Positions 14,662-26,180 of a DNA stretch of 64,000 nt are shown in pieces. The position numbers and the translations under genes are program-made. Below the pieces are notes generated by a model. It saw only the letters and a list, made by a program, of their open reading frames with translations, searched no databases and had not been told where the DNA came from. The stretch is from the NCBI GenBank assembly GCA_963796055.1, contig CAWCKH010000002.1, positions 32,001-96,000 on the forward strand, in the 5' to 3' direction. The stretch is from an uncultured delta proteobacterium. Its GTDB lineage: Bacteria; Myxococcota; Myxococcia; Myxococcales; Myxococcaceae. Within the stretch, counting starts at the first letter, position 1. The number at the start of each line of letters is the position of its first letter.

Positions 14662-14738
14662 TGGTCGGGGCGACTGGATTTGAACCAGCGACCACCTGCA
14701 CCCCAAGCAGGTGCGCTACCAGGCTGCGCTACGCCCCG
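14662..14738 (-). tRNA. tRNA-Pro(GGG), CCA encoded
   Basis: Reverse complement CGGGGCGTAGCGCAGCCTGGTAGCGCACCTGCTTGGGGTGCAGGTGGTCGCTGGTTCAAATCCAGTCGCCCCGACCA folds as a cloverleaf. Confidence 0.97.
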
Positions 14739-15195: not shown

Positions 15196-17616
15196 TTAGC
15201 GACCCCTCAGCTGGCCGCCCAGGCGCCGCTGGACCTCGTCCACGATGCGCCGGTGGGCCTCCTGGACCTCGTCGTCGCGGAGGGTGCGCTCCGGTGAGCG
15301 ATAGGTGAGCGCGAAGGCCAGGTTCTTCTGCCCCTCGGGCAGAGGTGGGCCGGTGTAGACGTCGAACAGCACCGCGTCCTCGACCAGCGGCTGGCCCACC
15401 TCGCGGATGACGGCGCGCACCTCGGCCGCCTCCATCGTGACCGGGACGACCACCGCGAGGTCGCGGAGCACTGCCGGGTAGCGCGGCAGCGGCTGGAACT
15501 GGGGCGAGAGCCGCGCCACCTGCTCCAGCCCCTCGAACTCGAGCTCGAAGGCGAACACGCCCGGGGGGAGCTCGAGGTGCTGCGCCACGAGGGGATGCAC
15601 CTCGCCGATCCACCCCAGCACCACGTCCTCGACCCGGGCCTCGGCCGTCGCCCGCGGGTGGAACGGCGCCACGCGGGCCAGCCGGCAGCTCAGCTCCCCG
15701 GCCGACAGCGCCGAGACGATGGCCTCCACCGCGCCCCGGGCATCGGCGAAGTCGTTCTGCGCGTCCTTCGAGGTCCAGCTCCGCGGCTCGCGACGGCCCC
15801 AGAGCACTCCGGCGACGTGGAGCCGCTCCTCGGCCACCGGCCGGAGGTCCTTGCCGCCGTGCGGATCGCGCAGGTAGGCCCGGCCAATCTCGTAGAGCCG
15901 GAGCGACTCGGGCTGGTGCCGCAGGTTCGAGGCGACGTTGGAGAGCAGCGAGGCCAGCAGGGTGGTCCGCATCACCGCCTGCTGGGGGGTGAGCGGGTTC
16001 TTCAAGCTGACCGCCCCCACCGGCGTCCCGAGCTTCTCCAGCGCCCGCGGCGTCACCCACGGCAGCACGCCCGGATCGACGAAGCTGTAGTTCACCACCT
16101 CGTCGAAGCCGGCACCGGAGAGCGCCCCGCGGATGCGCCGCTCCACCTCGACCCACGCCGGCTCGGGAACCAGCTCGCCTGAGCTGGCCGGGAGGACCGA
16201 GGGGATGTGCTCGTATCCGCGGATCCGTGCGACCTCCTCCACCAGGTCCTCGGGTCGCTCCACGTCCTGGCGCCATCCAGGGACGCGCCAGCGACCGCCC
16301 GCCTCGGCGGCGAAGCCGAGGGACGAGAGAATGGAGCGGACCTCCGAATCGGGCGTTGCGGCCCCGAGCAGGCCGTCCACCTCGCCCGTGGCCAGCGGGA
16401 CGACGCGCGGCTCGGCCGGGCGCGGGTGCACGTCGATGCGCCCCCGCCGCACGGTGGCCCCGGACAGCTCGGCCATCAGCGCCGCGGCATGGTCCAGCAC
16501 CTCGGGCAGCACGGTGCGGTCCACGCCGCGCTCGAAGCGGTAGGACGCCTCGCTGTGGAGCTGGTGGCGTCGGGCCATCCGGCGGATGGTGCCCGGGTCC
16601 CAGTTCGCCGCCTCGAGCAACACCCGGGTCGTCCCGTCGCTGACCTCGGTGTCCGCACCGCCCATGGTGCCGGCGAGCGACTGCGCCCCGCGCGCGTCCT
16701 CGATGACCAGATCGTCCGCCACCAGGGTCCGCTGCTTGCCGTCGAGCGTGGTCAGCGGCTCACCCTCGCGTGCCCGCCGCACCCGGAGGACGCCGCCCTG
16801 GATGCGGTCCAGATCGAAGGCGTGAAAGGGCTGGCCCAGCTCGAGCATCACGTAGTTGGTGACGTCGACCACGTTGCTGATGCTCCGCACCCCGCAGCGC
16901 TCCAGTCGCCGCCGGAGCCACGCGGGCGACGGTCCGATGCGAACGCCCTCGAGCACCCGGGCGGTGAAGCGCCGACAGCCCTCCGGGTCAGCGATCTCGA
17001 TGCGGATCGCGTCCGAGACCGGCGCGCCCGACTCGGCCGGCACCCGGAGCTTGCGCTGCAGCGGGACGCCGAGCACCGCCGCCGCCTCCCGCCCCACGCC
17101 GAGGTGGCTGAGCGCATCGCCCCGGTTCGGCGTCACGTTCACCTCCAGCACCGTGTCCTCGAGCCCCAGCGCCCGGGCCAGCGGCGTCCCGGGCACCAGG
17201 TCCCTGGGGAGGATGAGGAGCCCGCTCGCATCCTCGGAGAGGCCGAGCTCCTTGCCCGAGCAGAGCATTCCCTGGCTCTCGACCCCCCGGAGGCTGGCGC
17301 GCTGGATGGCCGTCCCGCCCGGCAGGGTCGCCCCCACGGTCGCCAGCGGGACGAGGTCACCCACCTGGAAGTTCTTCGCCCCGCAGACGACTTGCAGTCG
17401 CGCGCCGCCCGCCTCCACCTGGGTGACGGACAGCTTCTCGGCATCGGGGTGCGGAGCCGCCGCCGCGATGCGTGCGACCACCACCCCGGCCAGCGCCTCG
17501 CCCGGCCGCTCCATCCCCTCCACCTCGAGGCCCGCCCGGGTCAGACGGCGGGCGAGCTCCTCCGGAGCCGGCAGCGGCGAGACGAACTCTTGAAGCCACT
17601 CGACGGAGACCTTCAT
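15196..17616 (-). CDS. pheT: phenylalanyl-tRNA synthetase beta subunit
   Basis: HPDAEKL, TPNRGD, YRFERG, C-terminal FDX-ACB domain (FDVYTG); 806 aa. Confidence 0.97.
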   Translation of the reverse strand: MKVSVEWLQEFVSPLPAPEELARRLTRAGLEVEGMERPGEALAGVVVARIAAAAPHPDAEKLSVTQVEAGGARLQVVCGAKNFQVGDLVPLATVGATLPGGTAIQRASLRGVESQGMLCSGKELGLSEDASGLLILPRDLVPGTPLARALGLEDTVLEVNVTPNRGDALSHLGVGREAAAVLGVPLQRKLRVPAESGAPVSDAIRIEIADPEGCRRFTARVLEGVRIGPSPAWLRRRLERCGVRSISNVVDVTNYVMLELGQPFHAFDLDRIQGGVLRVRRAREGEPLTTLDGKQRTLVADDLVIEDARGAQSLAGTMGGADTEVSDGTTRVLLEAANWDPGTIRRMARRHQLHSEASYRFERGVDRTVLPEVLDHAAALMAELSGATVRRGRIDVHPRPAEPRVVPLATGEVDGLLGAATPDSEVRSILSSLGFAAEAGGRWRVPGWRQDVERPEDLVEEVARIRGYEHIPSVLPASSGELVPEPAWVEVERRIRGALSGAGFDEVVNYSFVDPGVLPWVTPRALEKLGTPVGAVSLKNPLTPQQAVMRTTLLASLLSNVASNLRHQPESLRLYEIGRAYLRDPHGGKDLRPVAEERLHVAGVLWGRREPRSWTSKDAQNDFADARGAVEAIVSALSAGELSCRLARVAPFHPRATAEARVEDVVLGWIGEVHPLVAQHLELPPGVFAFELEFEGLEQVARLSPQFQPLPRYPAVLRDLAVVVPVTMEAAEVRAVIREVGQPLVEDAVLFDVYTGPPLPEGQKNLAFALTYRSPERTLRDDEVQEAHRRIVDEVQRRLGGQLRGR

Positions 17617-17708
17617 GGCTAGACAGTATGGAGCGACCGGCTCGCTCGTTCAGCGCGGATTAGCCTCGGCAACGCCGCGGCCAGAGCCGCAAACGAGGAG
17701 CCGGTCGA

Positions 17709-18804
17709 GTGAAAACTACAACGCTGACCGTCGGAATGGACGTGCATAAGGAGTCGATTTCCTTCTCGGTGCTGGCCGGTGACCGGGGAGGCGCTCGGCC
17801 CACGGTGAAGATCCGGAACGATGCGCTCGAGCTGAAGCGCTGCTTCGGCAGGCTCAAAAAGGAAGGGGCGGTCCGCGCCTGCTACGAGGCCGGGAGTTGC
17901 GGCTACGAGGTCTACCGGCAGCTCGCAGCGATGAAGATCCCATGCGACGTGGTCGCGCCCTCGCTCATCCCGGTGCGCGCCGGCGATCGGGTCAAGACCG
18001 ACCGGCGCGACGCCGAGAAGCTCGCTCGCCTCTACCGCGCCGGCGAGCTCACTTCGATTCGCGTCCCCTCCGAGGCCGAGGAGGCGCTGCGGGATTCTCG
18101 TTCGCTGCCGAGAGGATGCGCGCGAGGACGTCATCCGCGAGCGCGACCGACTCCTGAAGTTCCTCCTGCGCCACGGGCGCAGCTTTACCGAGGGCAAGAA
18201 GAACTGGTCGATGCCGCACTGGAAGTGGCTTCGCAAACAGACGTTCGAGGCCCCCATCGCACAGACGGTCTTCACCGAGTACTTGGCCCGCCTCGAGGGA
18301 ACGCTCGGACGTCTCAAGGCGCTCGACCAGGAACTCGCGACAGCCGCCGAGAAGGAGCCCTATAAAACTCCCGTTGCGAAGCTCCGCTGCCTGCGCGGCA
18401 TCGACACGCTCTCGGCCGTCATCCTCATCGCCGAGATCTGCGACTTCCAGCGGTTCGAGCACCCCGACCAGTTCATGGCTTTCGTCGGCCTCGTCCCGAG
18501 CGAGCGCTCGAGCGGAGCCAAGGAGCGGCGGGGCAGCATCACCAAGACGGGCAACGGACACGCCCGGCGCGTACTGGTCGAGGCCGCCTGGCACTACCGG
18601 CGCCCGCCACGCCAGAGCGGCGTCATCAAACAGCGCTGGGAGGGCCAGGATGCAAAGGTCGTAGCCCACGCATGGAAAGCCCAGGAGCGGCTGCACCGGC
18701 GCTTCCACCGCTTCGTCTCCCGCGGCAAACCTTCGCAGGTCGCGGCCGTCGCCGTGGCTCGCGAGCTCTGCGGCTTTGTCTGGGCCATCGCCCGCGCCGC
18801 TTGA
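17709..18804 (+). pseudogene. IS110 DEDD transposase/recombinase, frameshifted at ~18096
   Basis: GMDVHK, YEAG and KTDRRDA in one frame; GLVPSERSSG and ITKTGN in another. Removing one T at 18095-18096 gives continuous LRDLVRCRED. May be a sequencing indel. Confidence 0.85.
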
Positions 18805-18864
18805 AAGGAGCAACGTACGTGCATCGCTTCGAAGCCGGCAGGCAGTGGATGAGCCAGGAACGTA

Positions 18865-19000
18865 GGAGGGACTCTCGACAGTTCTAAGTGGCGGCGGGCT
18901 CGACCCGCCGACCCACGCCGCTAGAGCGAGAAAGCCTCCCGACGAATCACGGTCATGCGGCGGCTCCGCCGACCCGCGAATCCTAGAGTGATCAACCGTC
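18865..19000 (+). ncRNA. putative bridge/seek RNA of the IS110 element
   Basis: Two stem/internal-loop/hairpin modules. Loop strands match the target (ACAGTTCTA, GCTAGA) and the donor junction (ATCCTAGA). Boundaries approximate. Confidence 0.75.
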
Positions 19001-19120
19001 GCAGCTCCCTCGCTCGTCCCCTGCCTGAAGGCCTCGAAGTACGAACCACGAGGAGCTGCGAAGCGAACAGACGCATCGCCACCAACGAACGAGAGAGCTG
19101 ACTTGACGGGTCGCTCCATC

Positions 19121-20161
<1,041 letters not shown>

Positions 20162-25993: not shown

Positions 25994-26108
25994 TACTCCC
26001 CTCGCGGGGCTGCATCAGCCCGATCCACCGGCGTCCCCGAGGTCCTGCACCTCGGTGCGTAAGACCTTGCGCCAGCGACCCCGAAGACTTGAGCCGTCTC
26101 AGATGCTG

Positions 26109-26180
<72 letters not shown>

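Follow-up and report, generated by a model that had tools for sequence, protein, structure and literature searches.

An IS1111-type insertion sequence between pheS and pheT of a myxococcal bacterium, with a predicted bridge RNA whose target and donor guides covary with its own DNA

The window analysed here is a stretch of 64,000 nucleotides from an uncultured delta proteobacterium of the family Myxococcaceae (GenBank assembly GCA_963796055.1, contig CAWCKH010000002.1, positions 32,001 to 96,000). An insertion sequence lies in it between the intact genes pheS and pheT, in the orientation opposite to both (Table 1). Both same-genus genomes examined have an empty pheS-pheT junction with a single AG. 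The two genes are 2 nucleotides apart in relatives and 1.5 kb apart here, through the antisense-oriented element (17616-19123). No obvious ribosome-binding site remains for pheT after the insertion. The genes around pheST, which we take from inspection by eye to be thrS, infC, rpmI, rplT and an ihfA-like gene, form with them an ordinary cluster flanked by tRNA-Pro(GGG) (14662-14738) and tRNA-Val(GAC) (26108-26180), both on the minus strand.

Table 1. Coordinates in the window of the insertion sequence, its predicted RNA and the adjoining genes
Feature	Position	Strand	Basis or remark
pheT, intact	15196-17616	-	B3_4, tRNA_synthFbeta, FDX-ACB and B5; starts 2 nt after the left-junction TAG
Antisense open frame	17619-19119	-	ATG in right inverted repeat to TAG at left junction; significance uncertain
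Whole insertion sequence	17621-19122	+	Five-copy alignment, homologue ends, lengths, empty site in 2/2 same-genus genomes
Left terminal extension: AG core + 5 nt (donor +1..+5)	17621-17627	+	AG 7 nt before left repeat and 3 nt after right repeat in 105/120 flanked elements
Left subterminal inverted repeat, 11 bp, perfect	17628-17638	+	
IS110-family (DEDD) transposase/recombinase gene	17709-18804	+	PF01548 and PF02371; extra base at 18095 in the window copy
Target-binding module (module 1) of predicted bridge/seek RNA	18865-18939	+	In 54 homologues, 91-97% pairing of the helices and compensatory changes
5' target guide	18879-18886	+	Complementary to target +5..+1, core (CT) and -1; corresponds to IS621 LTG with DNA read on minus strand
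3' target guide (RTG equivalent)	18920-18924	+	Same sense as target -3..-1 and core AG
Target-module handshake position	18925	+	Follows donor +1, not target +1
Donor-binding module (module 2) of predicted RNA	18941-19000	+	Conserved in family alignment
5' donor guide (LDG equivalent), weak	18949-18954	+	5/6 match here, mismatch at 18951
3' donor guide (RDG equivalent)	18980-18986	+	Same sense as donor -5..-1 and core AG
Donor-module handshake position	18987	+	Follows target +1
-35-like hexamer (5/6)	19103-19108	+	Expected to build a promoter across the circle junction
Right subterminal inverted repeat, 11 bp	19109-19119	+	
3-bp right extension and second AG core	19120-19124	+	Minus strand gives the pheS TAG stop (19121-19123)
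pheS, intact, ends on insertion site	19121-20161	-	PF01409 and PF02912

The bounds of the element were set by the IS1111 convention, with extensions of 7 bp on the left and 3 bp on the right, which gives a length of 1502 bp in the window copy and 1501 bp in the copy with an intact transposase gene (the C3 copy). The 364-amino-acid product of that copy carries residues D11, E60, D98, D101 and S268, which are invariant across 54 homologues and, in an alignment to IS621 and ISCro4, fall on D11, E60, D102, D105 and S241 of IS621, the catalytic residues named in Hiraizumi 2024 (PMC11208158). Features of the IS110 family are the domains PF01548 and PF02371, this catalytic D/E/D/D set with a serine in the Tnp domain, and a match to NF033542 in two pieces, each under the whole-protein cut-off, as well as a short core common to target and donor with no true target duplication. 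Features of the IS1111 group are subterminal repeats in the 11-13 bp range, the 7/3-bp extensions and a long downstream noncoding region, with 318 nucleotides 3' of the transposase gene versus 88 on the left side. A search of the linear element for sigma-70 promoters gave no complete promoter. A -35-like hexamer matching at 5 or more of 6 positions stands 11-17 nucleotides ahead of the core in 71 of 75 homologous elements, counted without a shuffle control, and may form part of a circle-junction promoter.

The host genome holds five copies of the element that are at least 99.6% identical overall and 100% identical in their right ends. Left flanks end in GCT-AG in all four readable copies, the fifth (the C5 copy, L004) being interrupted by the start of its contig, and right flanks begin with AG-AAC in all five. 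Farther out, the right flank agrees with the target at +4 (T) in three copies, at +5 (G) in four and at +6 (T) in two. The common target is GCT-AG-AAC(TG); its octamer is found unoccupied only 17 times in 5.5 Mb, and no unoccupied match to the 10-mer is left. We sought orphan copies of the RNA in the host genome and found nothing beyond the five full copies. A search at an E-value of 1e-125 found no nearer relatives among 400 genomes of the phylum, and an RNA-motif scan of viral contigs likewise gave none; the closest relatives obtained are only L111 (88%) and L112 (70%).

Some observations concern individual copies. We looked on contig C6 for an unoccupied version of the C5 site and found none. 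The C5 copy has the last 60 bases of C6 in its right flank as well, possibly as a repeat or an assembly overlap, and the sequence adjacent to the insertion is unique to C5. The gene that ends at the C5 site, in the right flank of L004, looks by eye like one for an outer-membrane beta-barrel with a C-terminal Phe. The intact copy lies directly downstream of an smc-like gene, also recognised by eye, in the same orientation (L001 3444-5363, minus strand), and read-through from this gene could express the transposase and RNA of the intact copy without circularisation.

Searches of genomes, metagenomes and viral contigs yielded 248 loci. A near-full-length match was present in 209, and 200 were left after removal of 9 duplicates of the element's own copies. 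Most homologues are 42-56% identical to this transposase. We detected an inverted-repeat pair in 144 of the 200, using a search that demanded ATG...CAT and 10 of 12 matches but did not demand AG, and 120 of the repeat-paired loci have both flanks. AG is situated exactly 7 nucleotides before the left repeat and 3 nucleotides after the right repeat in 105 of these 120; the 15 that do not have AG at both places were omitted from the covariation counts. Among 93 distinct elements, target and donor have 2 nucleotides in common in 71 cases, 3 in 19, 4 in 1 and 5 in 2. Because AG occurs at both ends so often and only two nucleotides are usually shared, the core is, as far as sequence comparison can define it, the dinucleotide AG; the opposite strand reads CT, like the core of IS621. 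The same counts led us to reject the CTAG(A) core of the original prediction; the CTAGA seen here is a coincidental overlap.

Several homologues depart from these patterns. L193-L196, L191, L200, L051 and L166 have GG or AA at one end, and L191, L200, L051 and L166 carry TT at the core-binding positions of the 5' target guide, hinting at natural variation of the core. L037, L047, L114 and L220 sit within short tandem repeats of their own target, which suggests repeated insertion and excision, or amplification of the target.

The original prediction placed a bridge or seek RNA in the right end of the element, and every sequence string that it quoted is present where it had been located. Folding of 18805-19120, carried out as it proposed, gave a structure better than all 100 shuffles (z -3.9), and the predicted fold contains the expected outer stem (18865-18877/18927-18939), the inner hairpin (18888-18916) and the stems of module 2. 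Module 1 alone has a z of -3.5, with 0 of 200 shuffles as good, and module 2 alone does not fold significantly (z -1.0, 29 of 200 shuffles as good). Across 54 homologues, the outer helix of module 2 is paired in 95% of cells and the inner pairs in 99-100%; the weakest helix is the middle one, ATCAC/GTGAT (68.5%), which overlaps the 5' donor guide. Over the entire family structure 91.5% of cells are paired, compared with 82.1% in shuffled and 28-59% in slid controls of 54 chosen sequences, from which the structure itself was derived, so that the slid control favours it. At minimum energy the naked RNA folds with one target guide paired to the other, because the site holds a CTAG palindrome, and the probability of being unpaired falls to 0.02-0.12 at 18882-18885 and 0.02-0.04 at 18918-18926. 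The open internal loop of module 1 appears in the family consensus, not in the single-sequence fold. Rfam gave no matches at E<=1 over 17500-19300.

Starting with the RNA of the window copy, a flank-independent iterative search retrieved 136 of 145 right ends. Individual columns were tested on 75 elements, all below 90% RNA identity to one another; comparisons within 37 disjoint pairs of neighbours on a FastTree tree of the proteins served as a control for kinship. As the original prediction anticipated, loop sequences covary with the flanks across homologues, in the two target guides as well as in the 3' donor guide (n=75; 37 neighbour pairs). Without any alignment, cognate combinations of guide and flank score 6.7 and non-cognate ones 3.1, the cognate being within the top 5% for 64 of 93 elements and strictly best for 27; a reverse-order control scores 4.9 against the background of 3.1, as palindromic targets inflate such scores. 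The column test gives z values of 8-13 along the guide diagonals. At the window site 9 bases outside the core are paired, a number reached by 20 of 5000 random AG sites.

Positions 18883 to 18879 of the 5' target guide complement target +1 to +5 in 0.89, 0.89, 0.75, 0.75 and 0.48 of the 75 elements (0.25-0.30 permuted), and the value for 18886 and target -1 is 0.84 (0.56 permuted). This guide had been drawn as nine nucleotides, 18878-18886, complementary to the target flank. The complementarity stands for 18879-18886; the outermost base, 18878, was dropped, as it does not covary with the target (0.23, and 0.23 permuted, n=75) and +6 matches in only two of the five copies. For the 3' target guide, 18922 to 18920 equal target -1 to -3 in 0.96, 0.91 and 0.61 of elements (0.55, 0.39 and 0.25 permuted). 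Within neighbour pairs that differ in target, both RNAs fit their own DNA in 20/25, 16/22, 13/25, 14/27 and 7/27 cases at +1 to +5, and in 13/16, 18/24 and 9/27 cases at -1 to -3. Swapped matches number 0 for +1 to +4, and 0-1 over all target positions.

The donor loop also follows the element's own DNA. Positions 18984 to 18982 of the 3' donor guide equal donor -1 to -3 in 1.0, 1.0 and 0.99 of elements (0.73, 0.69 and 0.78 permuted, n=75), and in neighbour pairs own-DNA fit is seen in all differing cases (6/6, 8/8 and 3/3). The second donor guide had been described as matching weakly, and we observe the same: its best-register match averages 4.2 of 6, versus 3.4 permuted (maximum 3.7 in 1000), and only 1-4 of 3-17 differing neighbour pairs per position are concordant. 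Inspected by eye, a subgroup with T after the core at the left end (L181, L190, L043, L162, L165 and kin) has its 5' donor guide one base out of register. The predicted RNA combines, as bridge RNAs do, a target loop with two covarying guides and a donor loop with two guides, the 5' one weak, and it agrees with the IS1111 rule that the top-strand complement lies 5' of the bottom-strand match.

Handshake bases are described as lying immediately 3' of each right guide and pairing with the other DNA after strand exchange (Hiraizumi 2024, PMC11208158). Among the 62 elements in which donor +1 and target +1 differ, position 18925 of the target module has the base of donor +1 in 61 and that of target +1 in none, and 5 of 6 informative neighbour pairs agree with the donor reading; the signal rests on about six changes of donor +1 on the tree. 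The corresponding position of the donor module, 18987, agrees with target +1 in 0.52 of elements versus 0.23 permuted, and with the donor in 0.45 versus 0.51 permuted. When it is not A it matches target +1 in 23 of 26 elements, and it is A in 49 of 75 whatever the target. Because target +1 and donor +1 are both A in the window element, the two positions had been taken for bases of the cognate guides. The string GCTAGA (18920-18925) indeed tracks the target over 18920-18924, and only its last A belongs with the donor; ATCCTAGA (18980-18987) similarly contains the 3' donor guide in 18980-18986, whereas its last A goes with the target. From these comparisons, 18925 and 18987 appear to behave like the handshake positions of IS621, cross-reading the non-cognate DNA.

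We assign a probability of roughly 0.86 to the reading that this is an IS1111-type element of the IS110 family, belonging to the ISCARN28/ISPye17/ISSso6 transposase cluster, and that its right end (about 18865-19000) encodes a predicted bispecific bridge RNA. Under an alternative that we regard as unlikely, module 1 (about 75 nucleotides) is the working guide, processed from a longer transcript, and the protein reads the ends via the inverted repeats, with module 2 either unnecessary or an aid to folding or processing. An 82-nucleotide seekRNA on its own gave better transposition of ISEc11 than the long form did (Siddiquee 2024, PMC11187229), the long inverted repeats are a possible protein-binding site, and both the insignificant fold of module 2 alone and the weakness of the 5' donor guide would fit. 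However, in 74 of 75 elements the variable triplet of the 3' donor guide is identical to the triplet at the right end of the same element, although the right-end triplet has changed 13 times on the tree, and 18987 in module 2 follows a target base; both facts are hard to account for without pairing of module 2 with DNA. Moreover, the cluster is about 20% identical to ISEc11-type enzymes in the identity matrix of the same study, and the ISEc11 results may not transfer. We give next to no credence to the view that the matches arise by chance, or that protein-only recognition of the CTAG palindrome explains targeting. The guides are short, with 3-5 variable bases each, the site does hold CTAG, and the reverse-order control exceeds background, but homologues with non-CTAG targets carry guides that follow their own flanks, as do nearest neighbours, and the comparison of the 37 neighbour pairs refutes this explanation.

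It could also be that the RNA signature is real but that the element is a decaying relic, most copies being dead by frameshift. As assembled, four of the five copies have one extra base in the transposase gene, in two GATCT contexts and with two different inserted bases. A codon model was used to locate +1 frame breaks in host genes, in place of a cruder first test that was noisy and showed modest enrichment only, and the top three of all 6-mers at such breaks are the frameshift 6-mers of the copies: breaks fall at 7 of 87 GGATTCT sites, 8 of 73 AGATTCT sites and 0 of 65 CGATTCT sites, against a background of 0.2%. Since the contexts are the same, we infer that systematic sequencing error probably accounts for the frameshift. 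The repair of it that had been proposed is not needed, one copy being intact in any case. The near identity of the copies likewise argues against decay, and the absence of the element from 8 same-genus genomes searched (E 1e-125) fits recent arrival. We therefore think a relic improbable and return to the bridge RNA reading, under which the element is, on sequence evidence, a recently spread one. Assembly-wide, GATTCT/ATTCTG/ATCTCG contexts show a strong excess of +1 breaks in host genes, suggesting systematic error at a possibly methylated GATCT-type motif, and because of this concentration apparent pseudogenes of this assembly need caution.

According to the codon model, four of the five copies occupy the TAG stop of a gene on the opposite strand whose product ends in Phe, and this TAG is restored by the right end of the element; a test of gene ends by GC pattern had given five of five. 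The guide sequence explains most of this siting, because 6 of the 17 empty target motifs are also opposite-strand gene ends. CTAG is rare in this genome, and 440 of its 1207 occurrences look like gene ends. At the family level, where 53 of the 75 elements have enough flank and 22 have flanks that are too short, stop triplets overlapping the core are seen at 50 of 53 sites, compared with 1204 of 5013 control AG sites, and gene ends at 14 of 53, compared with 46 of 5013. Survival bias, through purging of insertions inside genes, could yield the same enrichment of gene ends. Family-wide selection of the right end to restore stops is unsupported, since a single conserved triplet accounts for 59 of the 65 cases.

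An open frame on the opposite strand runs through the element. It has 499 codons in the intact copy (L001:1933-3429) and is broken in the window by the same extra base; it starts 1 nucleotide after the host stop, ends 2 nucleotides before the pheT start and has no Pfam match. The full-length frame is present in only 4 of 120 elements, namely this element, its closest relative L111, L090 and L155. Its retention in L111, which is 88% identical, has a chance of about 32% of surviving that divergence by chance, right-end length exhibits no frame bias (38/40/42), and 61% of host gene stretches are open in its register. Such tests have little power, because L111 and L112 are the only close relatives obtained. 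The frame is possibly there by chance, and chance is an adequate explanation. A bolder interpretation, which we consider doubtful, is a self-neutralising, stop-codon-seeking transposon, whose guides would read the Phe-TAG end of a gene on the opposite strand, whose right end would rebuild the TAG, and whose antisense frame would carry ribosomes across, keeping pheS and pheT coupled. If true, it would be a stop-codon counterpart of the hed arrangement of IS900, another IS110-family element, in which a complementary-strand frame dependent on host translation signals spans the whole element (PMC8141618). However, IS900 targets translation initiation signals and its frame has no start codon, whereas the present element lies at a stop codon and its antisense frame begins with an ATG of its own; nor is the antisense frame a family trait here.

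Sequence comparison documents the boundaries, the AG core, the target common to five copies, the two-module RNA structure and the covariation of guides and handshake positions. How such an element would move can be sketched from known systems. As in IS621 and ISEc11, it would excise as a circle, and joining of the ends would bring the right-end -35 beside the left end, driving expression of transposase and RNA. Recombinase dimers on each RNA loop would open target and donor and come together in a tetrameric synapse, the RuvC DEDD and the serine site of the Tnp domain would cut beside the core by serine-linked cleavage, handshake bases would pull strand exchange forward, and insertion would leave one AG at each end of the element. 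Read on the minus strand, the layout of the guides is that of IS621, with a 5' guide for the left arm and CT, and a 3' guide for the complement of CT and the right arm, followed by the handshake base. For this reason, the "reversed order" reported for IS1111 seekRNAs may correspond to DNA ends that are inverted relative to the gene.

Compared by eye, the protein motifs match those that the supplements of Durrant 2024 and Siddiquee 2024 give for ISCARN28, ISPye17 and ISPye19, and on this comparison we place the transposase in the ISCARN28/ISPye17 cluster. The diagnostic motifs, judged from the supplement text, extend along the full length, the proteins are of similar length and the RNA is in the right end; target and guides differ. 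Members of the cluster are 38-50% identical among themselves, which matches the range of most homologues found here, and about 20% identical to other IS110/IS1111 enzymes (Siddiquee 2024, PMC11187229). The source data of that study label ISCARN28, ISSso6 and ISEc45 as IS1111 though they are about 20% identical to IS1111-type enzymes. Bridge RNAs have been predicted in 93% of IS1111 elements, and one is drawn for ISCARN28 (Durrant 2024, PMC11208160). The description of the element as a possibly uncharacterised member is fair for the element itself, and does not extend to its cluster, which is catalogued. Among the papers listed by a literature search on cluster names there is no functional study of the cluster; the Durrant work aside, their titles and the starts of their abstracts describe genome surveys and tools.

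The IS1111 elements with seekRNAs, ISEc11, ISKpn4, ISPst6 and ISPa11 (Siddiquee 2024, PMC11187229), share with this element 11-bp subterminal repeats, 7/3-bp extensions, a junction -35, here a predicted one, a downstream noncoding region and a top-strand complement 5' of the bottom-strand match. Unlike their transposases of 330-350 amino acids, the one studied here has 364 and falls in a separate cluster, and its donor-reading second module covaries, whereas the passages of that paper considered here describe target matches only. IS621 and ISCro4 (Durrant 2024, PMC11208160; Hiraizumi 2024, PMC11208158; PMC13626964) have the same DEDD and serine set, a CT core (minus strand here), two loops with four guides, and handshake positions that read non-cognate DNA. 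They differ in that their RNA is in the left end, not the right; the inverted repeats of the present element are long, its ends are inverted with respect to its gene, its putative programmable target is shorter (about 3+2+5 bp), and its protein similarity to them is only E ~1e-8.

A targeted literature search found no paper devoted to handshake or donor-loop covariation in IS1111-type elements. The Evo-PIN preprint (2026; 10.64898/2026.08.14.744561) covers 32,190 bridge RNAs with 86 models and reports covariation for target and donor, and the donor-guide and handshake covariation of this clade may already be contained in these models or in figures of Durrant 2024. As a system, the element is known: it represents the RNA-guided bridge recombinases and not a new kind. 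Its appeal as an editor is reduced by the shortness of the natural target (about 8-10 bp). The intact, apparently recently spreading copy is nevertheless a candidate recombinase from a cluster far from IS621 and ISCro4. The main result is the clade-wide covariation, which points to a donor guide like that of IS621, together with both handshake positions, in an IS1111-type cluster with inverted repeats and a right-end RNA. This covariation bears on whether IS1111-type elements use the full bridge mechanism or a target-only seekRNA, and it indicates the exact bases for mutation.
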